Origin: an uncultured delta proteobacterium
GTDB taxonomy: Bacteria; Desulfobacterota; Desulfomonilia; UBA1062
Direction of reading: 5' to 3'
DNA: 64,000 bases
NCBI GenBank assembly: GCA_963785235.1
Contig: CAWAUM010000005.1
Coordinates: 288,001 to 352,000, forward strand
In this document: positions 3,539 to 20,987 of the stretch, one piece after another
How positions within the stretch are numbered: position 1 is the stretch's first letter
Layout: each line of letters begins with the position of its first letter
Notes under the pieces: generated by a model
The model's database searches: none
Seen by the model: the letters and a program-made list of their open reading frames with translations, nothing else
Told to the model about the DNA's origin: nothing
Translations under genes and position numbers: made by a program

Positions 3539-3540
3539 TA

Positions 3541-6500
3541 TCATCTGTCTCCCATCCATCAGGCTCATAATGGTTTTCTTCAGCGACATCGGCAGCCTGG
3601 GGATTATACATGATCAGGATTGCAGCACCGGCATAGAGCAGGGAGGTGGCGGTTGAAAGCTCCCACAGCGCGGCGCGCTCGGCCAGGTCGCCCCATGCGG
3701 GGAAGTCCGATTCCGGGGCGCGCAGTTCCTTGATCTTGGCACACTCCTGGCCGGGCGAGACGATCATGGGGGAGGCCAGCATCCTGTCGCCGCCAAGACC
3801 GGTCAGGCGGATCCGCTCCATGACCGAGTAGGTGTATTCGATGCCGTAGCCGATGGCGCTGGTGACGGGATCCACAACGATCCGTTCGGTCGGGATATTC
3901 ATGTTGGTCAGCAGGATGTTCAGCTGTTTCCCTATATTCACGTCAATGGGGCTCTGGGCCACGATGGTGTGCCCATAGGCCAGGGCCGCACCCGCGATGG
4001 TGCGGTAATTATCCTGCTCCACCCAGTTCAGGAGGAGGTTTTCGCCCGCACACCCCCTGGCGATCTCTTTCATGACCTCGTTCATCTTGTCGTAGTGGTT
4101 GTGCCCGGTGATGATCAGCGGGACATCCACTGCGGCCAGCACCGATTTCACCACATCGAACGCCTCTTTGGGGGAGCGGTCGCCCTTCTCGGGGTGGGTC
4201 CCGTCGAGCCTTACGCTGATGAGGTCAGCGCCGTATTTTTCCACGCACACTTTTGCCATCTCGGCAGGGTTGTCAAGGAGACTGCCCCATATGGTGCGCA
4301 GGACCTGGGGGTATTTGGCGCTGACCTTGTCAAAGACCTCCAGCGCCACCAGCGGGGCGGTTTTTCATGGTGCCTTCCCAGAGGTGCAGCGGCATGGCCG
4401 TGTCCCCGCCGATGGTGCAGGTGCTGCCGCGCGTGCCGCCCTGGGCCTTTGTGGCGCCCAGCGTGATCTCGTACACGGCCTGCTCGCACGTCTCTTTCCT
4501 GAGCGGCACGGATTTTATGGCAGCTATGCGCTCCTGGGCGCTTGGTTTCACCTGGTTTAATTCTTCAATGGGAGATGAGGCAGGTTCTGATGTCACAGAT
4601 GGCGGTGAGGCCTTTTGCAGCACAGTCCCAAGAAACCTCTCGCTCAGGACCCCGATGATGTCATTGACGATCTCTTTGGTGAGAGTCTGCTTGATCTCGC
4701 CCTTGATCTCGTTGATGAGCGATGTCTTCATTTGTTCCAACTGATCAGAGGAAAAGGCCTGTGCCTGGGAGGCAGGTGCGGCGGTTGCTGGTTCATCTGC
4801 TGTGGGCTTTTCCTTGCGCATGGGCGTCGGCGTGCTTGTGAGTGGTGCATGGTCCTGTTTCGCCAGGTCCGCGATATCACCCATTTCCATGGCAGGGTGC
4901 TTCACCTTTTCCAGATAGGTTCTTATGTCCCTGGGTTCGATGGCAACGGTTTCATCCGGGATCATTTCGAGCAGGCCCGGTGCGCCCTGTTCCTCAAAGC
5001 GCCTGTTCAGGTCCTCGCCCAGCATCTTCTTCAAGCCCTTAGTCATCCACACAAGCCGCTTGTGGCCCCCTTCGGCAAAGAGGAATTTCCGGGAGGTGAG
5101 AAAGACCTTGCCGCAGCCCATGAAGCCCGGTGTCTGCTGGCCGCCGCCCACGCTGCCCGCCAGGGTGGAGAAGCTCATGCCCGCCGGGGTGTCTCCGGTA
5201 TATTCGCGGTTCACGGCCATGATCCCGTTGCATTCGGGCACATATGCGCAGATGACCTCGAAGCAGCCGCAGCTGGTCATGGGCCGGTCCATGATGGAGT
5301 AGGCGCAAACGGACTGAACAGTCTTGTGCGAGGAAAGGTACACGTATTCATCAACGCCCTTCCATACGCCGCGCACCGGATCGAGGCATTCGCCCTTTTT
5401 CACCGGCTGGTTGGGGCCGGTCTCATCGATCTCAAAGGCGGCCTTGGCGTCGAGCCAGTTGTAGGCGCCGCAGAGCCCGAGGCGTTCCGGGGTGACCACG
5501 CAGACGTGATTCGGTGCAAAGGACTGGCACAGCAGGCACGAGTAGAAGATGTCCACGTTCTCGTCCGTCATGGATTCCAGGCGGCGGTTGCGCTCCACAT
5601 AGGTGCCCCGCGCTTTTGCCAGGCGTTTCTCCACCTCGTCCTTGTCCGTGATCAGGGTGACTTTCACCTTGTCCACAATGGCAGGATAGTTTGAAAGCAG
5701 CTTTGCATGCAGGATCTCGCCGTAGTGCCGCAGGCGCAGGCCCTTTGCGAACCCGCCCTTGGATATGCGCGTCCACACGATGTCGCGCTGGCCCATGTGC
5801 CAGATGCCCTCGGCGCCGTTGATGAGGTGGTGGATCTGCCGCTCCAGGATGGCCTCGAAGTCCGTCTGCATCTTTCTGCCTGCCACCTCCACCCAGATGG
5901 CCAGGGGCAGTGCCGCGCCTTCGGCGACCTGGTCCATGTCCGTCCCGATGATCTCAATCTGGCCGTCTTCGATCTCGTCCATTTCCTTCTGGTCACGAAC
6001 TCAAAGGCAGGGGTGATGTTGCCGCCGAACTCGACCTGGGTGTCCTGTTTGCGGATGCGCTCCCCTTCAAAGGCCGGGCCGTAGGGGACCGGGATGGGGA
6101 CCTTTGTGATCTTGACCTTGCAGCCCCGTACTTCAAGAGCCCTTGTCCACCATGGTTTCATAGGGCACGTTCGAGACCACGTGCTCATAGGTGCAAATGC
6201 CCGTGGGCAGGATCTGGGGGATATCGGTGTCGGCAATGACCGGGAAGCCGTAATTGAGCGCCCCTGCCGCTGCGGCATACTTTTCCGGCATCCACCTCGC
6301 CGAAGGCCAGCACAAAGGCAAAGATGCGCTCCTTGTTGTATTTCAGGTTGGCCTTGAAATCGCCGGGCTTCACGTTGCCGAAGGAAAGGGCGGAGCGGTT
6401 GGCAAAGCCCAGGGCATAGATCAGCGCCGACACATCCCTGCCAAAGGGCACGAGCCTGGTCTCCCAGCCCATCTGGACGCCTTCTTCAGCAAGCTGTTCG

Positions 6501-7048
6501 GCAAACTGCTTGCCATTTGTTGCTCCTGCCATGAACACGTAGATGTTCTTTTCCTGGAGCTCCCGGGCGATCTTGACGGCTATCTCGTTGGTCGGGGCAG
6601 CGCCGGTAATGGCGGCAAACCCAGGCGCCGTGCCGTCCACGAACTCGATGCCGCGCTCGCGCATGATGACATCGCTGGCAGCACCCAGCCAGATTCCATG
6701 AACCGGATTCGGGCCTATGAGGTATTTGCAGGCCTCGATGATCTCGCAGGCGAACAACGTTGCCACGCCGGCATCGAGCGTATTGCCCAGGTAGGGCAGC
6801 CAGACCTTCTCGGAAGGCGGTGGGCTCAGCAGGGACTTTAGCACGCGCCAGGATGCGGCGCATATCGGAGAGTGTCTCAGCCTTCTCGCCGGTAAAGGAA
6901 TAGATCACGGGCAGATGATAGGCCGTATCCGGAAAGGCGACCGCGCATGCCTCGCCTTTGGCCGGATGGCCTCGTCCAGCTTGGCCTCGGCCCTGGCCAC
7001 CCATTCTATGGCGCCATTGATGGCGCTTGAGCAGATGAGCTTAGACAC
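3541..7048 (-). CDS. acsB: Acetyl-CoA synthase (AcsB/beta) apparently fused to CoFeSP small (AcsD/delta) subunit; about 8 frameshifts
   Basis: GTG 7048 (MSKLICSSAINGA..FPDTAYHLPVIY); A-cluster motifs CLLCQSFAPNHVC, GLCGA, TSCGCFE; same frame runs through a P/A/T linker into ITLGATKAQGGTRG..GGDTAMPLHLWEG (AcsD start); delta core GYGIEYTYSVMERIR at 3333-4349. Indels near 6960, 6840, 6290, 6140, 5985, 4355, 3590, 3550. Confidence 0.85.
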
Positions 7049-8994
7049 CGAGCTCTCTCCTGTCCTTCATATCCATGAGCTTCCGTATCAGCCTTCTTGT
7101 TGATGCCGAGCCTTTCGCGGCGTTCGTTGATGATCTGCAGGATGGCTGCCGCAGCCTCATGGGGGTCTTCATGGATGTGGAACGACGCCCCGAAGACTCT
7201 GTGCGGCGTCCTTGTTGAGGAATTGGCTCACATTTTTCGAACCGGAGATATAGAACGGGTTGCCCAGGATGACATCGATGCCTGAGGCGACGAAATAGCA
7301 GCCGATGGCAATGGCCTTTTCACTCATCCATTCCGGGGCAACGCCCACGACCGGAACGTCCGACAGGTCGTCTCCAAGGCCGCCTTCGGCCACGATCTCG
7401 GTTGCCGCCTCCAGGAGGCGGGAGTTGTCCACACAGCTCCCCATATGCAGCACCGGCGGCATGCCCACGGCCTCGCACACCTCCCGCAGGCCCTGGCCGG
7501 CAAACTCGAGGGCCGCTTCCGGCGTCAGGTTGCCCTGCTTGGCCGAGGCAATGGCGGCGCACCCGGTCTTCAGGACCAGGATGTTCTCCTTGAGCAGTTC
7601 TCTGGTAAGCGTGTTTATGTAGGAATCGAGTTTGGTCTTGGGGTTGTTGCACCCCACGATGCCCACCACCCCTTTGATGCGGCCCTGGATGATGGCGTCG
7701 TTGAGCGGCCTGAAGGAGGCGCGGTATGTGCCGCCCAGCATGTATTTGATGCTCTCCACGCTGAACCCTGCGATGAGGGGCTTCATGTGCTTGGGTATGG
7801 CCACCTTTTTCGGGTCGCGGTTCCTGTAATTGTCAATGGCCCGTTTCAAGAGATCTTTTGCAATATCATAGGCATGGTCGGTGTTGAACTCCGTGGATGT
7901 GGCGCCGATGGTCTTGGCTATGCTGCTGGTGGAGACGATTTCGGTATGATACGCCTTTGCCACGTCCGGCAGCGAGGGCATGCAGCACTGGACATCGATG
8001 AGCATCATCTCCACCGCGCCGGTGACAATGGCCAGTTCCTGCTGCAGGAAGTTGCCGGCCAAAGGGATGCCGTGGCGCATGAGGATCTCGTTGGCAGTGC
8101 AGCATATGCCGGCCAGAGTTATGCCTTGGGCGCCTGCCTTTTTTGCATAGTCCTTGATCTCAGGGTCTGTGGAGGCGGCGGCGAGCATCTCGGAAAGGGC
8201 CGGCTCGTGGCCATGGACCAGGACATTTACCGTGTGCTCGCCCAAGATGCCCAGGTTTGCATTGCTCCGCACCGGGGTGGGGGTGCCGAACAGCACATCG
8301 GAGACCATGGAGGCGATGCGCGAGCCCCCCCAGCCATCAGCAAGGGCCAGGCGGAAGGCATGCATGAGGATATTCCGGTAATCGTGGTCCACGCCCATGT
8401 GCGTGCGGTGCATGGCCTCCACGATCATGCGGTCGATGCCCTCGGGCTCCACATCCTTTTTCTGCCAGACGCCCTGGCGGGTAAGCGGGGCGAGCTTCAA
8501 GGTCCTGAGCTTGTCTTCCTGGGAGGTGTATTCACCTATGAGAAGTTCGGCGAGCTTGACTGCCAGCTCAGCCACAGGGATGTCCTGGTCATCGATGCCA
8601 TAAGAAGCTGCGATCTTCCGCAAGGCGTGTTCATCCTTGATGGCGTATCCGCCGCCCCTTGCCCAGGCCGATCTTCTTCAGGAGCAGCACAAGGTGCCGG
8701 CCATGGTCGGAATGGGCATGCTGAACCGCCTGCAACCTCGCGCAGGAAATTGCGGGCAACGATGGTGTCGGCATCGGCCCCGCATACGCCCAGCGGAGAT
8801 TTTGCCGTGATCCTGCAGGGGCCCATGTGGCAGATGCGGCAGCACAGGCCCTTGGTGCCGTAGGTGCACTGGTTCTTCTGCTGGTCCATGCGGAAGAAGC
8901 TCAGATCAACGCAGTCACGCTTGGCCTTTTCAATGGTTTCTATGGATGCCGGGTCGCATGCCCGGTCTTCCGGGAGTTTCGTGCTGTTATCCAT
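7041..8994 (-). CDS. cooS: Anaerobic Ni-Fe CO dehydrogenase catalytic subunit (AcsA/CooS); about 4 frameshifts
   Basis: CTYGTKGLCCRICHMGPC (D/B clusters), HGHEP, ICCTANE, GCNN, TGC, GSCVD, WMSEKA; ends LMDMKDRRELGV*, overlapping the acsB start. Confidence 0.93.
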
Positions 8995-9766
8995 GATTCA
9001 TTTCTCCTGCAGATCCAGTTGCGAGATAAACTCCGGAAATCTCGGCCAGCACCGGATTGGCCATACTCAGTTCCTGAATGCTCTGGCCCTTCTCGGCCGC
9101 AATGGCCAGCTCGCTGTCAAAGGGCAGCATGAGCTGATAATCAGGCTGCAACCCCTGCAGCATTGTCAGATCCGGCTGAGATCCGTTTCTCACAAGGTTT
9201 ACCACAACCGCCAGGCGCTCGTATACAATTCCCATCTCCCCGGCAAGATCATACAGGCGTCTGATGGTTTGAATTCCCCGCTTTGAAGGATCGCCAACGA
9301 TGATGAGAAGGTTGATCTCCTGATAGAGTCTCCGTGACAGGTTTTCCAGACCGGCCTCGTTATCGATGACGATAAAGGGGTAATGGCTGGAGAGCTCCTT
9401 GATGCAGTCGCCAAAGAGGTTGTTGGCGTAGCAGTAGCAGCCGGGGCCTTCGGGGCGTCCCATGGCGATGAGGTCGAAGTTTTCCGCCTCCACAAGGCTT
9501 CGGCCGATCCGCAGCTCCACGAGTTCACGCTTGGAAACGCCTGTCGGCTGATTGTCGCCTGCCTTGCGGCTCTCTTCCCGGATCTGGCCCACGGTTTTTT
9601 TGACCTCCACGCCAAGCACCTCATCAAGGCAGGAGTTGGGGTCGGCATCCACGGCAAGGACCGGCTTATAGCCTTTGTTGATAAGGCTCTTGATGATTGC
9701 GGCGGCAATGGTGGTCTTTCCGGTTCCGCCCTTACCGGTGATCGCTATGGTATACCTTTTCGTCAA
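8987..9766 (-). CDS. cooC: CooC/AcsF-family nickel-insertion ATPase
   Basis: GKGGTGKTT, DADPN, GPGCYC, DNEAGLENLSR; overlaps the CODH start. Confidence 0.92.
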   Translation of the reverse strand: MTKRYTIAITGKGGTGKTTIAAAIIKSLINKGYKPVLAVDADPNSCLDEVLGVEVKKTVGQIREESRKAGDNQPTGVSKRELVELRIGRSLVEAENFDLIAMGRPEGPGCYCYANNLFGDCIKELSSHYPFIVIDNEAGLENLSRRLYQEINLLIIVGDPSKRGIQTIRRLYDLAGEMGIVYERLAVVVNLVRNGSQPDLTMLQGLQPDYQLMLPFDSELAIAAEKGQSIQELSMANPVLAEISGVYLATGSAGEMNHG

Positions 9767-9781
9767 GACTGCACAAACCTG

Positions 9782-10858
9782 CTAGAGCCCGAATTGGTCA
9801 CGGACATGTCGGGAGAGTTCTTTCAGCATGGTAAAAACCATCTCTGCATCGCTCACGGCAAGCGAACCGGTGCCGCAGGACGGCGTAATGAGTGATTGAT
9901 CAAGGAGTTGACTTTTGTCGATGCCCGCCTTTGCACAGAGATTGTCAATGACCTTGGAGAAGCGTTCCATGAGAGAACCAACACTCTGCTCACGGATGAC
10001 AGTGGAGGTGGGGACGATCCCCCAGGCGATGAGTCCGCCATCAGTGATAAACTTATGGAGTGCCTCGGGATACAATGCAATGGTCTCGCCGTAGCTGAAG
10101 GCATCGAGGTTGATCAGGTCAACGCCTGCATCCATGAGAATGGTCCAGTCCGTATTCCCGCAGCAGTGTACACCGGCAATGGCGTTTTCGGCATGGATGG
10201 CATCTGCCACTTCGCCGATGAGGGCAACAACTTCCTCGCGCCTTACCGAGATGTAGGTCGACGAACCGAAGGCGGAAAGGATGGGCTCATCGATGAAGCA
10301 GATAACCTTGTCCGCATAGGCCCTGAACTTCTGGATCTGCCAGCAGCATTTCATGGCCAGGGCCTTGACGATTGTATCGCGGAATTCTTCATTGTAATAG
10401 ATGGCGCGTTTGTTCTCATCCACCACGGTCAGGGCGAAAGAGCAGGGCCCTGTAGTCTGTACCTTTATGAATGGATATGTGCTGCCCTTAACCTTCAGCC
10501 GTTCTTCAAAGCCGTAAAGCCCTTTTGAAAAATCGCTGCTGATGGCCATGGATGAGCAGTCCCGGTTGCCGCTGTCCGGATCAAGGGCAGCCATGTAGGC
10601 TTCGTAGAAGAGGGCGAACTCCTCGGAATAATCACCTGAGGTATCAAAATACAATCGGCCTTTCTCATGATCGATGACCGCTCGGGGCATGCCTTCAGAA
10701 AACTGTATCTCCATCTGCTCATTGAGTGATAGCTTGGGCAGCTGCGGCCACACAGGGGCATGGCTCAAGGCATCGAACACGATATCCAGGGCCTTTCCCG
10801 GTTCACTGTGGGGAAAGCTTCCAATGGCGGTTGCTATGCACTTTGTCTTGATGGTCAT
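9782..10858 (-). CDS. Core (single-barrel, folate-independent) methionine synthase, MesB-like
   Basis: 358 aa; ATAIGSFPH, IDEP, Zn-ligand HCCG and ITPSCG motifs of the MetE catalytic domain without the N-terminal barrel; sits inside the acs operon. Confidence 0.8.
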   Translation of the reverse strand: MTIKTKCIATAIGSFPHSEPGKALDIVFDALSHAPVWPQLPKLSLNEQMEIQFSEGMPRAVIDHEKGRLYFDTSGDYSEEFALFYEAYMAALDPDSGNRDCSSMAISSDFSKGLYGFEERLKVKGSTYPFIKVQTTGPCSFALTVVDENKRAIYYNEEFRDTIVKALAMKCCWQIQKFRAYADKVICFIDEPILSAFGSSTYISVRREEVVALIGEVADAIHAENAIAGVHCCGNTDWTILMDAGVDLINLDAFSYGETIALYPEALHKFITDGGLIAWGIVPTSTVIREQSVGSLMERFSKVIDNLCAKAGIDKSQLLDQSLITPSCGTGSLAVSDAEMVFTMLKELSRHVRDQFGL

Positions 10859-10918
10859 TTCACTATCTTTCTTTCCTACGAAACACGTTTAAGGTTCGGG
10901 GTCAAATTATATCTAAAA

Positions 10919-10946
10919 CGTCATTCCCGTGAAGGCGGGAATCCAG
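10919..10946. repeat. Single REP/dRS3-like palindrome
   Basis: CGTCATTCCCGTGAAGGCGGGAATCCAG, one mismatch to 2102-2129. Confidence 0.8.
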
Positions 10947-10987
10947 TTCTTGTTAATTCCCTTTGATCTTATTAATATTATTAGCTA

Positions 10988-11773
10988 TTACAATAATTTC
11001 TGCACAATATCCGTGAAAAGACCTAGCAGATAATCATCAAGATTGTCAATTGCCGACTTCCCGTCCCGGTCGTTGTTCAGGATTGTTTCAGAGTAGGGGA
11101 TCATACCGATGATTTTTGCTGCCCCCAGTGCGCTCATGATAAGATCTTCATCAGCCCGGGATTTTATCCTGTTGGCTATGACCGAAATATTTTGCAAGCC
11201 GATCTGAGATGCCATGGATGAGATGCGCTTGAACGATTCGATGGAACGCGTGCCCGGCTCCACGACCACGACAAAGGAAGTGACGCCCCGTGCCGTTGCC
11301 CGGCCGAGGTGTTCGATGCCGGGCTCCATATCCATATACAGAACCTCTCCCCGGTGCAGGATCAGGTCCTGAACAAGTGCGCTCAGGAGAACGTTCTCTG
11401 GGCAGGCGCACCCGGAGCCGCCCGATTGGATGGCTCCCAAAACGACAAGATCAATGCCTTTGTGATGATAGGCGTAGGTGTCGGCAATGTCCGAAACTTC
11501 CGGGTTGAGCTTGAAGATCTGCCCGTATTGCTGGACCTTGGCCCCGGTGCGCTCTTCAATGAGCCTTTTGTGTTTGGCAATAGTGACGATGTCCTTCTGC
11601 AGTTCCAGGGGAATCCCCAAGGCCGAGGCCAGGTTGGCATCCGGGTCGGCATCTATGGCCAGAACCTTATGGCCCATGCCTGCAGTTAAGAGGGAAAGGG
11701 CTGCAGTGATGGTGGATTTCCCCACCCCGCCTTTTCCGGTTATGGCAATCTTCTGAGCGTTTCTGATTTCCAT
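10988..11773 (-). CDS. cooC: Second CooC-family nickel-insertion ATPase
   Basis: GKGGVGKST, DADPDANL, GSGCACPEN, DMEPGIEHLGR. Confidence 0.92.
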   Translation of the reverse strand: MEIRNAQKIAITGKGGVGKSTITAALSLLTAGMGHKVLAIDADPDANLASALGIPLELQKDIVTIAKHKRLIEERTGAKVQQYGQIFKLNPEVSDIADTYAYHHKGIDLVVLGAIQSGGSGCACPENVLLSALVQDLILHRGEVLYMDMEPGIEHLGRATARGVTSFVVVVEPGTRSIESFKRISSMASQIGLQNISVIANRIKSRADEDLIMSALGAAKIIGMIPYSETILNNDRDGKSAIDNLDDYLLGLFTDIVQKLL

Positions 11774-11775
11774 TC

Positions 11776-12810
11776 TTATGGTATCTCCGTTGTGTGCATG
11801 TGATAGGCAAAGACCCGTACCTGGCCGGTAAGTCCTTTGAGCCGTATGTCGGTTTCCCGGAAACCCTTTTGAAAGGCCACGACTTCCGAAAAGGTGTTTT
11901 CGTCAACGAGGATCTCCAGAGGTTGAGCCTTTTCCTGCAGGCGGGCAGCGAGATTGACATGGTGACCCACCACGCTGAAGGATTTGCGCACAAGGCTTCC
12001 CAGTATTCCCACTGCCACAGGACCGGTGGAGATGCCGATACCGACTTCCAGCACGGGTTTGCCTTCAACGGTGAGGTGAGCGTTGAGCTCATGCACGGCA
12101 GAGAGGATCTTCAGCGCAGCCACCACGGCCTGGTGAGGAGGAGACACGGAAATGGTCAGGATACCGAATACGCCCATGACCGCATCGCCCATGATCTTGT
12201 CCACCACGGCCGATTCTTCCAGCAGCGGTTGGATCATGGCATCCAGGTAACGGTTGAGTGTGGCAAAGACCACCTCCGGGGGATTTACCTCGCTGAAGGA
12301 GGTGAACCCGCGGATGTCGGCGAACAGGATGCTCACATGCCTGCGCTCGCCGGTTTCGCAGATGGCGACCTTACCTTCTTCAAGTGCCTTGACCAGTTCT
12401 TTTCCCAGGTACTGGTCGAGCATCTTGGCATGCCTTTCGCGCAGGTACGTATACTCGGTGGCCTTTTCAAAAAGGTGCAGGTGGTTAAGCTCGTCGTCAG
12501 TGACCTGGAGGAAGAGCACCCAGTGCCGGCGGCCGTCTTTGATGATATGTACATCAGCCCATCGGGCCGAATCGACCTGCACGCAGGGGAGAACCAGGTC
12601 GGCAGGTTTCAGGGGCAGAAGTCCTTCAAGGAAAGGGACCTGATCGAGCACGGATTTACCGACTTCCAGGTGGCCGAGTCCGTAGAGAGAGCAGTCCCCT
12701 CTGTAGTCTTCCAGTTTCTCGTTTCTGCCGACAACGAGATAGGCGGGCTTGCGTTCCTGAAGTTTGTGATCCACGAGATAGGCGGCAAGTTCGGCAGGCA
12801 GGTGTTTCAT
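11776..12810 (-). CDS. Soluble class III adenylate/guanylate cyclase with N-terminal PAS-like region
   Basis: FADIRGFT, DKIMGDAVM, GIGISTG, VVGHHVNLAARLQ; ATG overlaps the GTPase stop (ATGA); no transmembrane segment evident. Confidence 0.9.
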   Translation of the reverse strand: MKHLPAELAAYLVDHKLQERKPAYLVVGRNEKLEDYRGDCSLYGLGHLEVGKSVLDQVPFLEGLLPLKPADLVLPCVQVDSARWADVHIIKDGRRHWVLFLQVTDDELNHLHLFEKATEYTYLRERHAKMLDQYLGKELVKALEEGKVAICETGERRHVSILFADIRGFTSFSEVNPPEVVFATLNRYLDAMIQPLLEESAVVDKIMGDAVMGVFGILTISVSPPHQAVVAALKILSAVHELNAHLTVEGKPVLEVGIGISTGPVAVGILGSLVRKSFSVVGHHVNLAARLQEKAQPLEILVDENTFSEVVAFQKGFRETDIRLKGLTGQVRVFAYHMHTTEIP

Positions 12811-13316
12811 TTCACTCCCCACAGCCTGCGGGCAAGGTTCTCTATGGCAGTATGGATTGTTATTCCTCCATGCGCACTGCATGAGTACACATCAGACACC
12901 CGCGCATGAACGCTTGAAAGAAACGTATCATCCACTTCCCATATATCATTCAGGTCCAGCTTGTTGATCAACAGCACATGGGGTATGTTGCCGACGATTT
13001 TCTCCATGCGCGCATGCAGATCCATGGCGCAGTCCAGGGTGGCCCGGCGTGTGCCGTCCGCTACCAGGACATAGCCGTCGCTTCCATAGAGATATGCCGG
13101 GTCAATGCGGTAAAACTCGCTCTCGCCCCTGATGTCCCAGACGACAAGCTCTTTGAGGCGCTCACTGATGGCCACAACAACCCTGGTGATCCTCACCCCG
13201 AGGGTCGACTGATACCCGCTGCTGAATACCGAGCCTGAATAGCTCGCAACAAGGCTCGTCTTCCCCACGGCCGCAGCCCCGATTATGCAGATCTTTTTTC
13301 TGCGCATATCCTGCAT
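12807..13316 (-). CDS. Stand-alone Rab/Ras-like small GTPase
   Basis: 169 aa; G1 GAAAVGKTS, G2 STLGV, G3 WDIRG, G4 NKLD, G5 SAH. Confidence 0.9.
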   Translation of the reverse strand: MQDMRRKKICIIGAAAVGKTSLVASYSGSVFSSGYQSTLGVRITRVVVAISERLKELVVWDIRGESEFYRIDPAYLYGSDGYVLVADGTRRATLDCAMDLHARMEKIVGNIPHVLLINKLDLNDIWEVDDTFLSSVHARVSDVYSCSAHGGITIHTAIENLARRLWGVK

Positions 13317-13547
13317 GTGAATCCCTTTTATTCCCAGGACACCTATATAGGCAGCACCTTCCCTGAGATTGGCAAGTACTTGCGTTTGTCCTGGAAATCT
13401 GAAAAAGAGACAATACCTTCTGGGATTATGATTTGCAACGGCCAGTTACAATGGATCAATCCGCTTTTTGCCATTGCATGAACCCATGAATACTCTATGC
13501 ATCATGATTTGATCATAAACTCATAGTAACCTTGGAATTGTCTTTAA

Positions 13548-13715: not shown

Positions 13716-15350
13716 TCAGACCATCCGGTGATCCCGGCCGGTCTTGTGCAGGTAGTACTCATAATCCCCTTCGTAGATGCGCATCTCGCCGTGGTCGATC
13801 TCGAAGACCCGGTTCACCAGGCAGCGCAGGAAATGCCGGTCGTGGCTCACCAGGATCACGGTGCCGGGAAACCGCTGGAGGGCATCGAGCTGGATTTCGC
13901 GGGTCAGTATGTCAAGGTGATTGGTTGGCTCGTCCAAGACCAGGACATTGACCGGCCTGGCCATGATGGTGGCAAGGACCACACGGCTCTTTTCCCCGCC
14001 CGAGAGGCTTTTGATGCTCTTCTCCACGTCATCCCCCTGGAACAGGTATGCGGCGCACAGATTCCTGACCGTACCGAAGGTGGCATTGGGCATGGCGTCC
14101 TGCATGGTTTCCATGACGGTCTTGTTGGGGTCGAGCAGGTCCATGGAGTGCTGGCTGAAGTAGCCAATGTTCACATTGGCCCCGATGGTGACGCTGCCGG
14201 AAGTTGGTTCGGTCTGGGAGGAAAGCACCTTGAGGAAGGTGGACTTGCCGGCGCCGTTGACACCTACCACCGCGATCTTTTCCTGGCGGCGGATCATCCC
14301 GGAGACCCCGCTGAATACGGGTTTATCTTTGCCGTTGAACAGAGGCCAGGTCTTTCCGAGGTTATCGAGCTTGAACACATCGTCACCGCTGCGGGGCGGT
14401 TCGGCAAAATCGAACCTGACCCTTTTCTGCTCGGGGGGAAGCTCGATACGTTCGATCTTTTCAAGCTTCTTCACCCGGGACTGCACCTGGGACCCGTGTG
14501 AGGCCCTGGCTGCGAAGCGGGCAATGAATTCCTCTTCCTTGGAGAGCATCTCCTGCTGGCGGCGATGGCTGGCAAAAAGCTGTTCGCGGCGGACTTCCCG
14601 CTCGCGCAGATAGAAGTCATAGTTGCCGCTGTAGGTGGTTATGGTCTTGTTTGCCACCTCGACAATGCGCTTGGCGATGCGGTTCATGAAGTCACGGTCG
14701 TGGCAGGTCATGAAGAGGGCACCCTTGAATTCATTGGCGAGCCATTCTTCCAGCCAGATGATGGATTCCACATCCAGGTGGTTGGTGGGCTCGTCAAGCA
14801 GCAGCACGTCGGGGTTCAATGTGAGGATCTTGGCCAGGGCGATGCGCATCTTCCAGCCGCCGCTGAAGGATTCCACCGGGTTATTATAATCATCCGGCCC
14901 AATGCCCAGTCCGGTTAAAACTGCCTGTGCCCGGCTTTCCAGGTCGTAGCCGCCGCCATGCTCGAACTCAGAGAGAGCCTCGCCGTAGCGTTCGAGTAGC
15001 GATGCCATGTCGTCATCGTCCATGGGCTCGCACATGGCCGCTTCCATCTCCTTGATCTGCCTTTCCAGCAGCATCACCTTGACGGAAACGGACATGACCT
15101 CTTCCAATGCAGTGCAGCCGGACATGTCTCCCACGTCCTGGGAGAAGTAGCCTACAACGGTCTTTTTAGCCTTTGATATCTCACCGGAATCACATTCTTC
15201 CTCACCCATGATGAGGCGGAAGATGCTTGTCTTGCCCGAACCATTAGGGCCCACGAGACCGGTGCGGGTGCCGGGCAGGATCTGGAAGCTGGCGTCTTTG
15301 AACAGTACCTGCGATCCGTACTGTTTGCTGATGTTTGTCAGATGTATCAT
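13716..15350 (-). CDS. ABC-F family ATP-binding protein
   Basis: Two NBDs (GPNGSGKT/FSGGWKMR/LDEPTNHLD; GVNGAGKST/LSGGEKSR/LDEPTNHLD), no transmembrane domain. Confidence 0.95.
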   Translation of the reverse strand: MIHLTNISKQYGSQVLFKDASFQILPGTRTGLVGPNGSGKTSIFRLIMGEEECDSGEISKAKKTVVGYFSQDVGDMSGCTALEEVMSVSVKVMLLERQIKEMEAAMCEPMDDDDMASLLERYGEALSEFEHGGGYDLESRAQAVLTGLGIGPDDYNNPVESFSGGWKMRIALAKILTLNPDVLLLDEPTNHLDVESIIWLEEWLANEFKGALFMTCHDRDFMNRIAKRIVEVANKTITTYSGNYDFYLREREVRREQLFASHRRQQEMLSKEEEFIARFAARASHGSQVQSRVKKLEKIERIELPPEQKRVRFDFAEPPRSGDDVFKLDNLGKTWPLFNGKDKPVFSGVSGMIRRQEKIAVVGVNGAGKSTFLKVLSSQTEPTSGSVTIGANVNIGYFSQHSMDLLDPNKTVMETMQDAMPNATFGTVRNLCAAYLFQGDDVEKSIKSLSGGEKSRVVLATIMARPVNVLVLDEPTNHLDILTREIQLDALQRFPGTVILVSHDRHFLRCLVNRVFEIDHGEMRIYEGDYEYYLHKTGRDHRMV

Positions 15351-15461: not shown

Positions 15462-17286
15462 TCAATCCTTAACAAGGAGCATAACACAGTTCGGGCAGTC
15501 AAAAACAAGGCGGAAGCGTCGGAGCGCATTCTCAATATACAGGGGTTCTGCAAGAGGAACCTGGTTCTTCTTTCGGCTGCAGGCATTCAGGCATCTGCGA
15601 AGGCAGTGCTTTGTTCTCATGACCACGGCACCCGGTGCAGGCTGTTGCTGCTCAAAGGCGGGCTCAATGGCGGTGATCCCATGCCTCTGGTAGAATTCGC
15701 GGGCAGCATGGTTGCTGATGTTATAGCTGTAGTCCAATTCGGGTACAGGGTAGGGGGCAGAGGTGTCCGGAACGGCTCGGGACTTAAGGCGCTTGTATGC
15801 CTGGTCTCGATTGTCTTCCATAAGGGAGATAAGGTCCCGACGCAGCTGGTTGAGCTCTGATGCCCGGAGGAAATAGGGCCTTGTTTCAAGGTTCAGGGAT
15901 GCGAGAGAAAACATGCTGTCGTTCAATTTGGAGAGCTGCTTTTTCATGGTTGCCACAGCGGCCTCAGGTTTTTCCGCCGGCTCCTTGGCAGTTAAGAGGG
16001 TTGCTATGCCATGGATTCCGTCTTCGTCAATACCCTCAAGCGCGAAGCCATCAGGGATTTCCCGAAAGGTCATATACAGGGCGATCTTTCGTACCGAGGC
16101 TCGGGCATCCAGGTGTTTGAGAAATTGATGGTCCCGGTTGCGGAAGATGGTCATGCCTGGCTGAAGCCCGCCGCATGCCAGGTGAACCTGCGTGCGCTGG
16201 TCAATCACCTTGATTACCTGAAGGCCCTGGAGTTCTCTCTTCTCGTCAAAAAAACACAGGCCGTCGCCTGGATTGAGTGCAGGGGAACCTCTTGTGAGTT
16301 CGAACCAATCAGGTCCGCACTTTATAACCGTGCCTATTTCTTCGCCCATTGACTTGGGTGTATCGGGTGACCAGATATCATCTGATTCGTTGTTTCATAA
16401 AATATGTGGTGGCTCCCCGGCAGAAGGTCTTCCCAGGATCCGGGGTGAAAGGAATTTCAGTACGACCGCTGGAGGCGCGTTTAAGTTCAGGCCGTGCCTC
16501 GATTATTCTGTCCAGCAGGGTGCTGTAAAAGGCCGTGACATTTCTGACATAGCTTATGTCTTTGAGCCTGCCCTCGATCTTGAAGGCAGTGATGCCGGAG
16601 TCAATCATGTCAACCAGGCAAGAGGAGCGATTCATGTCCTTAAGGCTTAATAGGAAACGATTATGTTCAAGCACTTGGCCATCGGCATCGGTAAGGGTCC
16701 AGGGCAGGCGGCAGGGTTGGCCGCAGGTCCCCCGGTTGGAGCTGCGGCCGCCAAGGGAGGCGCTCAGATAGCAGCGGCCGCTGTATCCCACGCACAAGGC
16801 ACCGTGGACAAAGGCCTCAAGCTCTATTGTTGTTTTTCCTCGGATCTCGCGGATCTGTGATAAAGTCAGCTCACGGGCCAGTATGACACGGCCGAATCCC
16901 ACCTGTTCCAGAAACCGGATATGGGAGGCCTCTGCATTGTGCATCTGGGTGCTGGCAATAAGGGGAAAGGGCGGCAGATCGAGCTCCAGCAGCCCCATAT
17001 CCTGGATGATCAGGGCATCAACCCCGGCATCCCAGGCCTGCCTGGCAAGCATCCTGGCCGAGTCAAGTTCGTCATCAAAGACAATGGTGTTCAGCGTCAG
17101 GTACACCTTTGCACGGAAGCGATGGGCATAGCGGGCGAGCGTTTCGATGTCGGCAAGAGAATTCCCGGCAGCGGAACGTGCGCCAAAGGATGGGCCGCCG
17201 ATGTAGACTGCATCGGCGCCATTATCAATGGCTGCCTTGCCGCATTCAAGATCTTTTGCCGGCGATAGAAGTTCTATGGGTGTCAT
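15462..17286 (-). CDS. rlhA: U32-family protein, probable 23S rRNA 5-hydroxycytidine synthase RlhA; frameshift near 16378
   Basis: ELLSPA, GADAVYIG, HGALCVGYSGRC, NRGTCGQPCR, KIEGR; the C-terminal half (MRTKHCLR) lies in ORF 15462-16349. Confidence 0.8.
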
Positions 17287-18935: not shown

Positions 18936-19862
18936 ATGAGAAATATAAATAATCTGAAGGGTTTTTCGTACGTGTTCAGAAGGCTGATTGATGCATTCAT
19001 AGTGGTTTTTTGTATTCTGGCCTTTCTTTCGTGCGCACATAAGGAGATACCAAAAGAAACACCACCACTTCCAAAACCCGCAAAGATAGCGGTTGTACTC
19101 GGGGCCGGTGCATCCAAGGGATTTGCCCATATCGGTGTTTTGAAGGTGCTCGAGACACAGAAGATTCCCATCCACATGATCGTAGGGACAAGCGCCGGCA
19201 GTTTGGTTGGAAGCTTATATGCCTATGGATTCGATGCCTTTACCCTTCAAAGTGTAGCCATGAAGGTGGAGAAGAGTGATGTGATTGACTATACAATACC
19301 TGACAATGGGTTCATCAAGGGTGAAAAGCTTGAAGCATTCATCAACAAAACCGTAAAAAACACCCCTATAGATAAATTGAAGATCCGTTTTTATGCAGTT
19401 GCAACAGATATCTCCAATGGCGAAGAGGTGGCCTTTGCAAAGGGCAATACAGGGGAGGCTGTTCGGGCAAGCTGTTCCGTACCAGGTGTATTCCAGCCGA
19501 AAAGGATCGGGGGAAAGACCTATATGGATGGCGGTGTTGTCAGCCCTGTTGCCGTTGACGTGGCAAGGCGATACGGGGCCGATGTGGTAATTGCAGTAGA
19601 CATCTCGGGTGGCATAGCAGGCGAAGTTCCACAGGGAATTGTGGACACCATGATGAAGTCTGTTGACATTATGTATTCCAATATTGCCGCCTATCAGGTC
19701 AAGAAGGCTGACATCGTGATACGTCCGAATGTGAAAAATATCGGATCAACAGAAATGGAAAAGCGTCATGAGGCTATCCTGGAGGGAGAAAAGGCGGCAA
19801 TGGAGGCATTGCCGGCTATTCAGAAGATCATCGCCAGGCTCAAACAGGAAGGAAGGTTGTAG
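18936..19862 (+). CDS. Patatin-like phospholipase, probable lipoprotein
   Basis: GAGASKG, GTSAG, DGG; lipobox FLSC. Confidence 0.92.
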   Translation: MRNINNLKGFSYVFRRLIDAFIVVFCILAFLSCAHKEIPKETPPLPKPAKIAVVLGAGASKGFAHIGVLKVLETQKIPIHMIVGTSAGSLVGSLYAYGFDAFTLQSVAMKVEKSDVIDYTIPDNGFIKGEKLEAFINKTVKNTPIDKLKIRFYAVATDISNGEEVAFAKGNTGEAVRASCSVPGVFQPKRIGGKTYMDGGVVSPVAVDVARRYGADVVIAVDISGGIAGEVPQGIVDTMMKSVDIMYSNIAAYQVKKADIVIRPNVKNIGSTEMEKRHEAILEGEKAAMEALPAIQKIIARLKQEGRL

Positions 19863-19866
19863 ATAC

Positions 19867-20987
19867 CTACCTGAATGTGGCGCGGAAGCGTATCATGGCG
19901 CCGATGAAAAGTACGGTCCCTATGGCTGCCATGGCAAGAAGCTGCGGCCAGACCACACCGATTCCGGCATCCCTGAACAGCACACGTGAACAGAATTCCA
20001 TATAGTGCGTGGTCGGGGCGAATTGCATGATGATCTGGAGGAACCTGGGCATGGACTCCAGTGGGGGTTATCCCGCCGTTCAGCATGGAGATGGGCACGA
20101 TAATGGGCATGCTCAGAAGACCTGCCTGGGGCTGATTCTTGGCAATAGTTGCAAGGAAAACACCCAGTTCGGTTGTCGCATAGAGAAAGACAATGGTCCC
20201 CAGAAAGAAAAGCGGCGTCGAACCGTGGATAGGGGCCCCGATGACCCACTTGATGGAAAAGAAGAGTGCAAACATCGCCCCGGCCACCACGATAAAGCTG
20301 TTCGCCCAGACCTTGGCTATGGTGATCTCCAAGGGGACAAGGGGCATGACGAGCAGGTGCTCCACGGTCCCCCGTTCCTTTTCCTTGATAAGGGCTGCAG
20401 CAGGCAGGATGATGGAGAGCAGCGTGATCATGTGCGTAAGGAAAACAACACTCATGAACCAGGAGCTTTCGCGGTTCTGATTGTACAGCACGCGGGTGGT
20501 TACCTGGACGGGTGGTACCAGCGGCTTCTGGTGCTCCATGCAGATAGGTCTGTATCTCGTCGTTGATAATCCTGCTCAGGTAGGATGTGCCGAGTTTTGC
20601 ATGGCCGATGGCCGTGGCATCGACATCTATGCTGACCTCGGGAGTTTTGCCGGAGAGGAGATCTTTTTGAAAACCCGATGGGATATGAATGACAAAGATA
20701 TATTCTGCCCTGTCCAAGACCTGGTTGATCTCCTGGAATGCGATGGCCTGGGGTTTCTGGAAATAGGGCAGCTGAATAGCGTCGATGATCCGGGCAGAAA
20801 GAGGTGACTGATCTTCGTCAACATAGGCCACGGAAGAGTTGCGCACCTGCAGCCCGGTGCCCTTTGACGGGACAATGACCATGACGGTAAAGGAATAGAT
20901 GACCAGGACAACCAGGACATAGTCATAACGGAAACTGATGAGTTCCTTCAAACCGAGCCGGTAGATGTGCCAGAGTTTTCTGATCAT
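19867..20987 (-). CDS. ABC-2 transporter permease (YhhJ-like); two frameshifts
   Basis: LGLKELISF, EKERGTVEHLLVMP, PTTHY spread over three frames. Confidence 0.85.

Follow-up and report, generated by a model that had tools for sequence, protein, structure and literature searches.

We propose that a small Ras-like GTPase and a soluble class III cyclase, encoded side by side in an uncultured member of the Desulfobacterota, probably form a self-contained switch: a pared-down version of a Group 1 Rup GTPase system in which the output is an adenylate cyclase, and which is only an incidental neighbor of cooC. The cyclase is most likely controlled by the GTPase that it is paired with, as part of a two-gene unit that is present in several phyla. 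The features are as follows, with positions in the window (the whole stretch of 64,000 nucleotides that we analyzed) and all of them on the minus strand:

12807..13316 (-): Rup-type (Ras/Rab-like) small GTPase, 169 aa (Pfam Ras, 1.8e-21)
11776-12810 (-): class III cyclase ORF, 344 aa (matches Pfam Guanylate_cyc)
12508..12810 (-): PAS-like N-terminal domain of the cyclase, residues 1 to ~102 (from AF2 and structure comparison; no Pfam family)
12379..12498 (-): long signalling helix of the cyclase, residues ~105-144, between the PAS-like and cyclase domains (AF2)
11776..12348 (-): class III nucleotidyl cyclase catalytic domain, residues ~155-344 (PF00211, 4.2e-21)
13317..13445 (-): leader of ~129-130 bp, directly 5' of the GTPase start (blastn against the closest genome)
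11780..13314 (-): 1535-bp indel relative to the closest genome (G002), from the GTPase start codon to the cyclase stop codon (blastn)
10988..11773 (-): cooC-like P-loop ATPase, 261 aa, with a Cys-x-Cys motif (GCACP); a neighbor outside the module (Pfam CbiA, ArsA_ATPase)

The GTPase, the cyclase, and their pairing

The GTPase matches positions 1-159 of the 162 positions in Pfam's Ras model, and it also matches Roc (4.7e-19) and TIGR00231. An earlier reading of this DNA without database searches (the sequence-only reading) reported a 169-aa GTPase with all five G motifs. Each of these motifs, which are those of the Ras superfamily (PF00071), can be read in the translation: G1 is GAAAVGKT, switch I has T38, G3 is WDIRGE, G4 is NKLD, and G5 is CSAH. 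Because G3 reads DIRGE, the catalytic glutamine is missing, as that reading had also said: in the alignment to the closest solved relative (Rab23, 3.9e-17), Glu65 occupies the position of Rab23's glutamine. Only 2 of 121 family sequences have glutamine at this position, and the other 119 do not. The 48 closest of 120 homologs have DI[KR]GE at G3, and Arg63 is specific to the window's clade. The source genome has no second small Ras-like gene. The reported lack of an adjacent MglB/roadblock gene also held up, as Pfam finds none at the locus. Pfam's Robl_LC7 has no match in the whole source genome, which is 93% complete (as a control, the search was positive in 3 of 14 genomes).

In the cyclase, residues 156-326 match Pfam's Guanylate_cyc (PF00211, 4.2e-21). 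The sequence-only reading listed both metal-binding aspartates, the lysine, the NxxxR pair, and a serine at the second specificity position. All of these are present (D165, D209, K205, N286, R290, and S279); we take their catalytic roles from the literature on class III cyclases. They align to the solved cyclase Cya2 (2w01/6fht, the closest solved cyclases), and they are conserved among 114 full-length homologs (D165 in 112, D209 in 112, K205 in 107, N286 in 110, and R290 in 107; position 279 is serine in 63 and threonine in 42). The combination of lysine with serine or threonine (K205/S279) suggests that the substrate is ATP and that the product is cAMP.

The start codon of the cyclase and the stop codon of the GTPase share four nucleotides (ATGA), and this overlap, or an abutment, is retained in relatives. 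The gene with the cyclase's N-terminal domain (the N-domain) adjoins the GTPase gene in all 19 loci that have enough flanking sequence (the window, L007 = L100, L008 = L101, L009, L010, L088, L099, L102-L107, L122, and L124-L128). The hosts are Desulfobacterota, a cyanobacterium, and a Clostridia MAG. In the same scan, none of the 76 loci with a class III cyclase that lacks the N-domain had the GTPase beside it. Of the GTPase-cyclase-cooC linkage for which the sequence-only reading had proposed to survey gene neighborhoods, the part that joins GTPase and cyclase is conserved. Scanning genome contigs with the cyclase alignment was less informative: 4 of 80 loci were relevant and the rest were generic class III cyclases, which swamped the scan because the two peptide patterns in use were both taken from the catalytic domain. 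With a profile of the N-domain, we found it in 5 of the 401 genomes in a sample of the phylum, including the source genome (G000); the domain is rare, and one new locus was gained.

A PAS-like domain that is predicted to bind the GTPase

Residues 1-150 of the cyclase have no match in Pfam or NCBIfam, Pfam's PAS models included. AF2 models the N-domain with a pLDDT of 78.6 when it is modelled alone and of 85-93 within the full-length protein, and places a helix at residues 105-144. The modelled domain resembles the PAS domain of ThkA (3a0v_A; VIA, Z 9.8, rmsd 1.8 over 81 residues) and PYP (VIA, Z 9.0). All 10 of the chains shown with Z of at least 8 are PAS domains or contain one, and Foldseek matches the N-domain to a phytochrome PAS domain (E 2.8e-4). 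A roadblock/MglB fold was also considered, but the fold searches gave PAS domains instead.

The N-domain profile matches 936 representative proteins, and the domain is nearly always at the N terminus. The 102 representatives with at least 250 aa include 29 with a cyclase as output, 31 with a histidine kinase, 7 with PP2C, 3 with a sigma54 activator, and 1 with an HD domain; the others have OmpA (1), only PAS (2), only a receiver (1), or nothing else (27).

We predict that the PAS-like domain is a GTPase-binding module. The sequence-only reading had suggested modelling the GTPase with the N-terminal part of the cyclase, and this gave a confident interface: ipSAE, which is the model's own confidence, was 0.83, 0.82, and 0.83 in three runs, versus 0.00 for the best of three controls. 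Of 80 solved complexes, 58 reached the mark that we used for ipSAE, as did 2 of 110 mismatched pairs, but this calibration is only approximate for our runs because they used their own alignments and included GTP/Mg. At least 90% of the contacts are common to the three runs, and the partner has a pLDDT of at least 84. The N-domain is docked on the switch I/II face of the GTPase (residues 35-45, 56-69, and 72-80). On the cyclase side, the predicted interface includes residues 55-64, 72-80, and 84 from the PAS-like domain and residues 108-129 from the helix. In the prediction, beta2 pairs with strand 72-80, and E115 may contact R63.

This helix also contains a difference between the window's cyclase and the rest of the family. 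Glutamine is found at position 114 in 141 of 151 members of the N-domain family, and at position 115 in 147 of 151; the window's protein has F114-E115. None of the 27 sequences that make up this clade (the window's cyclase and its 26 closest homologs) has Gln-Gln. Considering both proteins of each pair, 11 pairs combine DI[KR]GE with [FYL]E and 7 combine D[IL][QAHY]GE with QQ. Judged from these sequences, the loss of Gln-Gln and the change to lysine or arginine in G3 coincide at the level of the clade, but this is not statistical covariation, because it amounts to a single event in the evolution of a single clade. Given the lost Gln-Gln, the N-domain of the window's clade could have ceased to act on the GTPase in the way that it does in the rest of the family.

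In 2014, Wuichet and Sogaard-Andersen gave a computational description of the Group 1 Rup GTPase systems, with no experiment (PMC4316618). According to the sections of that survey on which we rely, no Rup-family GTPase had been experimentally characterized at the time, the Group 1 GTPases lack the G3 glutamine, and their signalling outputs have a conserved N-terminal region with an invariant glutamine that was proposed to act in trans on the GTPase. We infer that the family's Gln-Gln corresponds to this glutamine. The literature search returned no later functional study of a Rup-family GTPase. The sequence-only reading thought that the module had not been described, which is partly right: Group 1 Rup systems have been known since 2014, but the outputs that are named in those sections of PMC4316618 are GGDEF/EAL or histidine kinase and not adenylate cyclase, although its table S2 may list cyclases.

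As the Group 1 systems are presented there (PMC4316618), the window's pair resembles them in its Ras-like GTPase with eukaryote-type G1-G5, no G3 glutamine, and no MglB, and in having a signalling output with a conserved N-terminal region as the partner. It differs in its output, which is a class III adenylate cyclase, in that the "invariant" glutamine is replaced by F114-E115 and position 63 in G3 is arginine or lysine, and in having just two genes: the DUF-TM-OmpA membrane protein and the cytoplasmic coiled-coil protein of ~200 aa are missing. Both proteins are found at loci of distant relatives (L009, L010, and L106/L107), and both are absent from the window's locus and from the clade loci L099-L105. 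In the source genome, the membrane protein gives matches to its OmpA C-domain only, and the 215-aa protein gives no match. OmpA lipoproteins are encoded beside the pair in two loci (L103 and L105), but we do not consider them to be Rup partners, as the OmpA C-domain is all that they share with the Rup membrane protein.

Position ahead of cooC, and alternative explanations

The cyclase's TAA ends at 11776 and the ATG of the cooC-like gene is at 11773, which leaves a gap of 2 bp. Beyond the cooC-like gene, the same strand encodes a 358-aa ORF, a second cooC-like gene, CODH, ACS, and the delta and gamma subunits. Thus the ATGA overlap, the 2-bp spacing, and the shared orientation with the acs genes are all where the sequence-only reading had placed them. 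(The CODH and ACS genes are interrupted by frameshifts in the analyzed assembly.) The first cooC-like gene matches CbiA (1.5e-19) and ArsA_ATPase from Pfam, and no CooC-specific model scored above its cut-off. It encodes a MinD-type P-loop ATPase with Cys-x-Cys and lies in a CODH neighborhood, as is the case for CooC/AcsF; its Cys-x-Cys presumably has the role that it has in these nickel-insertion ATPases. We considered whether the junction between the cyclase and cooC is an artefact of assembly, and we rejected this since the junction recurs in a JGI metagenome contig (L123, 98.4% identity) and is bridged by the public-run contigs described below.

Between 9700 and 13800, we found no terminator-like sites and 4 promoter-like sites, none of them in the leader; as 3.2 would be expected, the scan is uninformative for promoters. 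With permissive thresholds, the only Rfam match between 9000 and 16000 is a chance miRNA (E 0.37), and no riboswitch is visible in the leader. The leader is on one side of the pair, cooC is 2 bp away on the other, and nothing in this stretch resembles a terminator, so the pair is probably co-transcribed with cooC and the CODH/ACS genes in the window's lineage. Among the 24 runs listed, there was no RNA data set.

In the closest genome (G002), the same leader is fused straight to cooC, so the pair corresponds to a precise indel of 1535 bp. With blastn, the leader (13315-13445 in the window) matches 7704-7834 of L114 at 82% identity, and 10961-11779 in the window aligns to 6887-7705 of L114; that is, the alignment resumes from L114 7704 at 13315 in the window. 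The indel is flanked by a CAT microhomology and, from these sequence comparisons, is confined to a shallow subclade. L124 retains the order leader, GTPase, cyclase at 87% identity, and its similarity to the window stops at 13445, as does that of a run contig (X3 record 24). Among contigs from public runs, we saw no joint that skips 11780-13314, which is not proof that such joints are absent.

The sequence-only reading tied the module to CO metabolism and the maturation of nickel enzymes. More generally, the GTPase and cyclase could be functionally tied to CODH/ACS, with cAMP, for instance, reporting or controlling expression of the CO/acetyl-CoA pathway or the maturation of its nickel enzymes in this lineage. 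The pair's seat, behind the operon's leader and separated from cooC by so small a gap without a terminator-like site, would be explained by such a role, as would the order retained in L124. So would the persistence of the junction with cooC, which is bridged by contigs from three public runs (from three studies; one run may be the source sample) and has 94-99% identity across these and the JGI contig. However, the distribution of the pair argues against a tie. In the flanks that we fetched for homologous pairs outside the window's lineage (up to ~9 kb on the longer contigs), there is no cooC, no CODH or other coo/acs gene, and no 358-aa gene; the linkage to cooC is not conserved. This is close to what the sequence-only reading had named as evidence against itself, namely homologous pairs that never co-occur with these genes. 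Within the genus, five genomes have an ortholog of cooC (G002, G003, G004, G011, and G013) and the pair was not found there, six have the pair (G001, G008, G009, G010, G012, and G014) and no cooC ortholog at E<=1e-40, and the two occur together in G000 alone. In G002, G003, G004, and G013, the cooC orthologs (79-93% identity) head the same CODH/ACS cluster without the pair, and within the family the pair is found in four other unrelated contexts. The joining of leader and cooC in G002 and the frameshifts in CODH and ACS in this assembly also count against a dedicated role. We consider it improbable, and the claimed tie to CO and nickel is unsupported: the pair's place before the CODH/ACS genes is probably a recent local accident instead of a functional link. 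Still, the 2-bp spacing, the leader in common with G002, and the finding of the same junction in several environments show a stable arrangement in the lineage, so this CODH/ACS lineage may have co-opted the pair locally.

Two other explanations concern the pair itself. The N-domain might be a GAP or GEF for the GTPase and not a receiver of its signal, in which case the GTPase's target would lie elsewhere, or the GTPase of the window's clade would be merely a permanently bound subunit. The near-invariant Gln-Gln within the predicted interface helix, the scarcity of the G3 glutamine in the GTPases, and the trans-glutamine idea in PMC4316618 are what one would expect if so. But the window's protein and its 26 closest homologs have no Gln-Gln and yet keep the tight pairing and a confident predicted interface, and the nearly constant fusion of the N-domain to signalling outputs fits a flow of signal into the output. 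We think this explanation is unlikely, and a GAP/GEF role is in any case compatible with a receiver role. We give hardly any credence to a Pycsar-type defense cyclase that makes cCMP or cUMP, with the pair as an anti-phage module. PADLOC's PycC models do match the catalytic domain (best 1.2e-19) and the pair is patchily distributed in varied genomic contexts, but the match is no better than that of the general class III model from Pfam, the GTPase has no PADLOC match, no locus has an adjacent gene for a cNMP-binding effector, and the lysine at 205, which is conserved as described above, is of the purine type. Also, within the genus the cyclase has diverged as much (70-74%) as a housekeeping-like neighbor has (71-76%), which fits vertical descent over mobile defense.

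Proposed mechanism and related systems

In the switch that we propose, the Rup-type GTPase without the G3 glutamine would be produced together with the soluble adenylate cyclase. One nucleotide state of the GTPase, presumably the GTP form, would bind the cyclase's N-domain and the helix that follows it, through switch I/beta2 and switch II. Binding would alter the helix leading into the cyclase dimer, which would in turn set the synthesis of cAMP; the proposal does not specify the sign (activation or inhibition). The cAMP would be read out by cNMP-binding proteins that are encoded elsewhere in the genome, and the source genome has five cNMP-binding matches. The pair would be a two-gene reduction of Group 1, having neither the DUF-TM-OmpA protein nor the ~200-aa partner. 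In the window's clade, the helix's Gln-Gln has become [F/Y/L]-Glu and G3 has gained a lysine or arginine; because of these two changes, the GTPase cycle was probably rewired. Finally, the pair lies between the leader and the start codon of cooC here but would not be functionally dedicated to cooC and CODH/ACS. Of the sequence-only reading's GTPase-gated cNMP module tied to CO and nickel, the gated cyclase thus fares well, given the strict linkage and the modelled complex, and the tie does not.

A bolder version of this proposal, which we hold only tentatively, is that the PAS-like N-domain is the missing partner of Rup GTPases, that the clade's switch was rebuilt, and that the module was captured behind the CODH/ACS leader. 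The N-domain would then correspond, in bacteria, to a Ras-binding domain, plugging one GTPase into adenylate cyclases, histidine kinases, PP2C, and sigma54 activators. In this clade of Syntrophaceae, the trans Gln-Gln would have been replaced by a glutamate that pairs with the lysine or arginine of G3, giving a two-protein cyclase holoenzyme with a different, and perhaps hydrolysis-independent, GTPase cycle. If all of this were true, then cAMP synthesis in this shallow lineage would track expression of the acetyl-CoA pathway, because the module sits behind that operon's leader.

The CODH/ACS link was the most striking aspect at first sight, but it gives no basis to build on. The pair itself is the simplest Rup-type system. 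Since both of its proteins are soluble, its output (cAMP) is easy to assay, and its interface is predicted with confidence, it opens two questions to direct test: the role of bacterial Ras-like GTPases, and how GTP is hydrolyzed without the G3 glutamine.

The pair would also be a prokaryotic parallel to the control of adenylate cyclase by Ras. In budding yeast, the GTP form of Ras2 binds a non-catalytic region of the class III adenylate cyclase Cyr1 and sets cAMP. The proposed logic is the same here, with a Ras-family GTPase setting a cAMP output, but Cyr1 is large and membrane-associated, with an RA domain and leucine-rich repeats, while the receiving part here is a PAS-like domain of ~100 residues and a signalling helix; we do not mean to imply that the receiving parts are homologous. 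A prokaryotic small Ras-superfamily GTPase that is encoded next to its regulators and connected to signalling proteins is also found in MglA-MglB and in the actinobacterial conservons (CvnA-D). The GTPases of these systems are MglA-family members with a roadblock/LC7 GAP as partner, whereas the window's GTPase is Rab/Ras-like and its genome lacks Robl_LC7. The conflict systems centered on GTPases that Kaur et al. 2020 described were another candidate; according to the passages that we cite, they are built on GAP1/GASH and dynamin-like GTPases and are a different system (PMC7159879).

The cyclase's order of sensor, long coiled-coil helix, and cyclase domain is that of class III cyclases linked to PAS/phytochrome or BLUF sensors (6fht, and bPAC 5m27). 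In those proteins the sensor binds a chromophore, whereas the window's PAS-like domain is predicted to bind the GTPase. The best solved match to the cyclase by sequence is 6fht, and the alignment begins in the linker, at residue 131.

Genes at the head of the CODH/ACS cluster

We consider it likely that the Ras-like GTPase and the class III cyclase encoded directly upstream of cooC form a conserved switch of the Rup type, and that its position at the CODH/ACS genes is specific to this lineage. The genes of this region are:

Genes around the GTPase-cyclase pair (window positions)
13716-15350, minus strand: ABC-F ATPase gene, with a 400-bp spacer before the GTPase gene
12807-13316, minus strand: GTPase, 169 aa (Pfam Ras, 1.8e-21)
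11776-12810, minus strand: class III cyclase, 344 aa (PF00211, 4.2e-21 at residues 156-326)
10988-11773, minus strand: cooC-like ATPase, 261 aa
9782-10858, minus strand: ORF of 358 aa without a Pfam or NCBIfam match
8987-9766, minus strand: second cooC-like gene
beyond the second cooC-like gene, minus strand: CODH, ACS, and the delta and gamma subunits

The GTPase has all five G motifs, and its G3 motif is DIRGE. Its best solved relative is Rab23 (3.9e-17), with Glu65 aligned at the position of the catalytic Gln. The GTPase stop overlaps the cyclase start (ATGA), and 2 bp separate the cyclase stop from the cooC start. The cyclase domain retains D165, D209, K205, S279, N286, and R290, which are conserved across 114 full-length homologs and align to Cya2 (2w01/6fht); the catalytic roles that we give to these residues are what we take to hold for class III cyclases. 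The sequence-only reading had listed the GTPase motifs, the overlap, the cyclase residues, and the 2-bp gap, and every one of these details is seen in the sequence.

The GTPase and the N-terminal domain of the cyclase

No Pfam or NCBIfam model matched residues 1 to ~135 of the cyclase. We built a profile from 12 such domains (N-domains) and searched it against representative proteins, which gave 936 matches at E ≤ 0.001 (640 at 1e-10). Among the best 150 of these 936 matches, the N-domain is N-terminal in nearly all. For the 102 of those 150 proteins that have at least 250 aa, the domains behind it are histidine kinase (31), class III cyclase (29), PP2C/SpoIIE (7), sigma54 activator (3), PAS only (2), HD, OmpA, or receiver only (1 each), or no Pfam domain (27).

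A GTPase homolog adjoins the N-domain gene at 19 of 19 loci with visible surrounding DNA (counting L007 and L100 as one locus, and likewise L008 and L101). These loci are from Desulfobacterota, one Coleofasciculaceae cyanobacterium, and one Clostridia MAG. In a set of 80 reference-genome cyclase loci, the GTPase is present at 4/4 with the N-domain vs. 0/76 of the others. It is present at all of the loci of relatives from the family and the class, and all five of the metagenome contigs with upstream flank carry it beside the N-domain gene; in one further member of the phylum, it adjoins that gene on the other side. The overlap or abutment of the GTPase stop and the cyclase start is kept throughout the relatives' loci. 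The proposal that the GTPase and the cyclase act as a module is supported by this adjacency: the pair is a real, well-conserved unit and probably a switch.

In the AlphaFold2 model, the N-domain is a helix, two strands, short helices, three strands, and then a long helix (pLDDT of 78.6 alone, and 85-93 inside the full-length model, whose mean is 83.7). A Foldseek-independent fold search placed PAS domains on top (the ThkA PAS, 3a0v_A, at Z 9.8 and rmsd 1.8 over 81 residues, and next the CitA PAS at Z 9.2 and PYP at Z 9.0), and Foldseek matched the N-domain to phytochrome PAS domains (E 2.8e-4). The full-length model has a PAS-like domain (1-102), a helix (105-144), and a cyclase domain (155-337), which is the same layout as in sensor-linked class III cyclases. 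The best solved sequence match of the cyclase, 6fht, aligns from residue 131 onward.

As had been suggested, we also predicted the complex of the GTPase with the N-terminal region of the cyclase (residues 1-140), using alignments of 28 and 18 rows, respectively, and including GTP and Mg with the GTPase. The model has a confident interface between switch I/II and this N-terminal region (ipSAE of 0.83, 0.82, and 0.83, whereas none of three controls scored above 0.00). Of 80 solved complexes, 58 reach this ipSAE mark, as do 2 of 110 mismatched pairs, but this calibration is only rough because custom alignments and riding ligands were used. The runs have at least 90% of their contacts in common, and the partner pLDDT is at least 84. 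On the GTPase, the predicted contact involves residues 35-45 (switch I and beta2) and 56-69 and 72-80 (G3/switch II); on the cyclase, it involves 55-64 (the conserved FLEGLLP stretch), the strand 72-80, and the helix 108-129. This face of the GTPase would be the one for a nucleotide-dependent effector or GAP. The model supports binding of the GTPase to the N-domain; we know of no comparable solved complex. The linkage, the modular architecture, and the complex model together suggest that the GTPase in its GTP state would bind the PAS-like domain and helix of the cyclase and would set cAMP synthesis.

Relation to Group 1 Rup systems

The Rup family of prokaryotic Ras-like GTPases was defined by Wuichet and Sogaard-Andersen (PMC4316618). 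In that paper's account of Group 1, the GTPases lack the G3 Gln and linkage to MglB, and they have three conserved neighbors: one protein with a coiled coil, one that combines an unknown domain with a TM helix and OmpA, and an output protein that is "typically" GGDEF/EAL or a histidine kinase. The N-terminal region of the output protein has an invariant Gln, which was proposed to act possibly in trans. According to the same account, no Group 1 member had been studied experimentally at the time, and our literature searches found no later functional studies of Rup-type systems. The GTPase-centric conflict systems, as PMC7159879 describes them, were judged to be a different system from the pair.

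By that account of Group 1, the pair belongs to these Rup systems, which are computationally described and experimentally untouched, and it departs from them in defined ways. The distant loci L009, L010, and L106/L107 fit the description, with a 595-726-aa protein that ends in OmpA and a 203-215-aa protein. In contrast, the window's clade is reduced to two genes, and its output is predicted to be an adenylate-type cyclase. The neighbors at the clade's loci are unrelated (a ZIP transporter; UvrC/Pth; TAtT/gyrase; PurL with an OmpA lipoprotein), and the window's own genome (93% complete) has no match to the N-terminal part of the membrane protein or to the 215-aa protein.

The clade also differs in two motifs. 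In the helix of the N-domain family, Q is found at window position 114 in 141 of 151 sequences and at position 115 in 147 of 151. Both positions fall within the predicted GTPase interface, and we take this Gln-Gln to be the invariant Gln of PMC4316618. In the window's cyclase and its 26 closest homologs, it is replaced by F/Y/L followed by E (rarely K, G, Q, or D), while the remaining 87 homologs have QQ (81) or [K/R]Q (6). Over the same range of relatives, G3 is DI[K/R]GE in the 48 closest GTPases and DL[Y/A/N/H/V]GE or similar in the others. Paired loci have either DI[K/R]GE with non-QQ (11) or another G3 with QQ (7), with no exception; since the coincident change is confined to a single clade, it counts as one event. 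An attractive reading is that the Glu of the helix faces the new Lys/Arg of G3 in a putative contact.

Some distant loci have other arrangements. At L106 (4146-4577) and L107 (9802-10257), the N-domain is a stand-alone protein of ~145-150 aa directly behind the Rup GTPase, whose match in L106 is divided between two frames. On the opposite strand, genes for a 724-726-aa DUF-TM-OmpA protein, a 215-227-aa protein, and a PP2C (SpoIIE) phosphatase flank the N-domain gene. The cyanobacterial locus L009 (5951-13573) has two Rup GTPase genes and two membrane-protein paralogs (465 aa without OmpA and 595 aa with it) around the cyclase, and a histidine kinase comes after.

Position beside cooC

The sequence-only reading had tied the pair to CO/nickel-enzyme maturation, and this part was not supported. 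GTPase-cyclase-cooC linkage recurs only within the window's own lineage: the fetched flanks of homologous pairs outside that lineage contain none of cooC, CODH, the 358-aa gene, or the ABC-F gene. Among 15 genomes of the genus, a cooC ortholog is found in G002, G003, G004, G011, and G013 and the pair in G001, G008, G009, G010, G012, and G014; only the window's own genome has both. The order in G003/G004 is U32 peptidase genes, about 2.2 kb, cooC, the 358-aa gene, cooC, and CODH.

The alignment to the closest genome, G002 (87-88% nucleotide identity across the cluster), reaches the cooC start and resumes at 13315, just upstream of the GTPase start, so the window has an extra segment of 1535 bp (11780-13314). 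Its ends are the G of the GTPase ATG and the T of the cyclase TAA, and a CAT lies at either flank. The window shares a 129-bp leader (13317-13445) with G002, where it precedes cooC, and with the metagenome contig L124 (87% identity), where it precedes the GTPase; G003, G004, and G013 lack this leader. The simpler reading is that the segment was inserted in a shallow subclade; mechanically, a precise deletion of the pair in G002 would be just as possible. Within the genus, the pair is old: its cyclase is 70-74% identical to those of G008, G009, and G012, in line with a neighboring peptidase gene (71-76%). The placement in front of the CODH/ACS genes is an indel specific to this lineage and offers no basis for a role in nickel-enzyme maturation.

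The junction between the cyclase end and the cooC start is real: it is bridged by a JGI metagenome contig (L123, 98.4% identity) and by contigs from the public runs X1, X3 (94%), and X4, one of which may be the source sample. We found no terminator-like site after the pair, and in the window's lineage, the pair should, as predicted from sequence, be transcribed from the operon leader together with cooC.

The region before cooC is a variable spot: G002 has 7.5 kb of other genes there, and G003/G004 have about 2.2 kb. G002, L124, and a 3-kb run contig all cease to resemble the window at 13445, so the sequence upstream of the leader, with the ABC-F gene, differs among these close lineages. Between cooC and the 358-aa gene, an insert of ~85 bp (10876-10960) is not in G002, and contigs of three runs omit it or a larger stretch of this spacer (77-129 bp). 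It looks REP-like, as its ~30-bp palindromic core matches the window's own genome at 20 places and has a very high word depth in metagenomes; the region's best promoter-like site (10933-10906, 10/12) is inside it. The 358-aa ORF itself (9782-10858, minus strand) lies at the same position between the cooC-like genes in G002, which has its own frameshifts in this gene, and in G003, G004, and G013 (76-91% identity).

The genes for CODH (7169-8994), ACS (4330-7004), and the delta subunit (3333-4349) are split into several frames in the assembly. In comparison with G002, the CODH gene carries two 1-bp insertions (8655 and 8718). ACS is spread over at least three or four ORFs, one of which (4330-5982) continues beyond ACS and takes in N-terminal sequence of the delta subunit. 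Either real decay or assembly error could explain these broken frames. At 15462-17286 (minus strand), two U32 peptidase-type ORFs of 302 and 295 aa, separated by 28 bp, match single 624-625-aa frames in G008, G009, and G012, which could be due to either a frameshift or a genuine split. Two long overlapping ORFs in different frames at 19820-20987 (minus strand; 239 and 355 aa) look like one gene that was broken by a frameshift.
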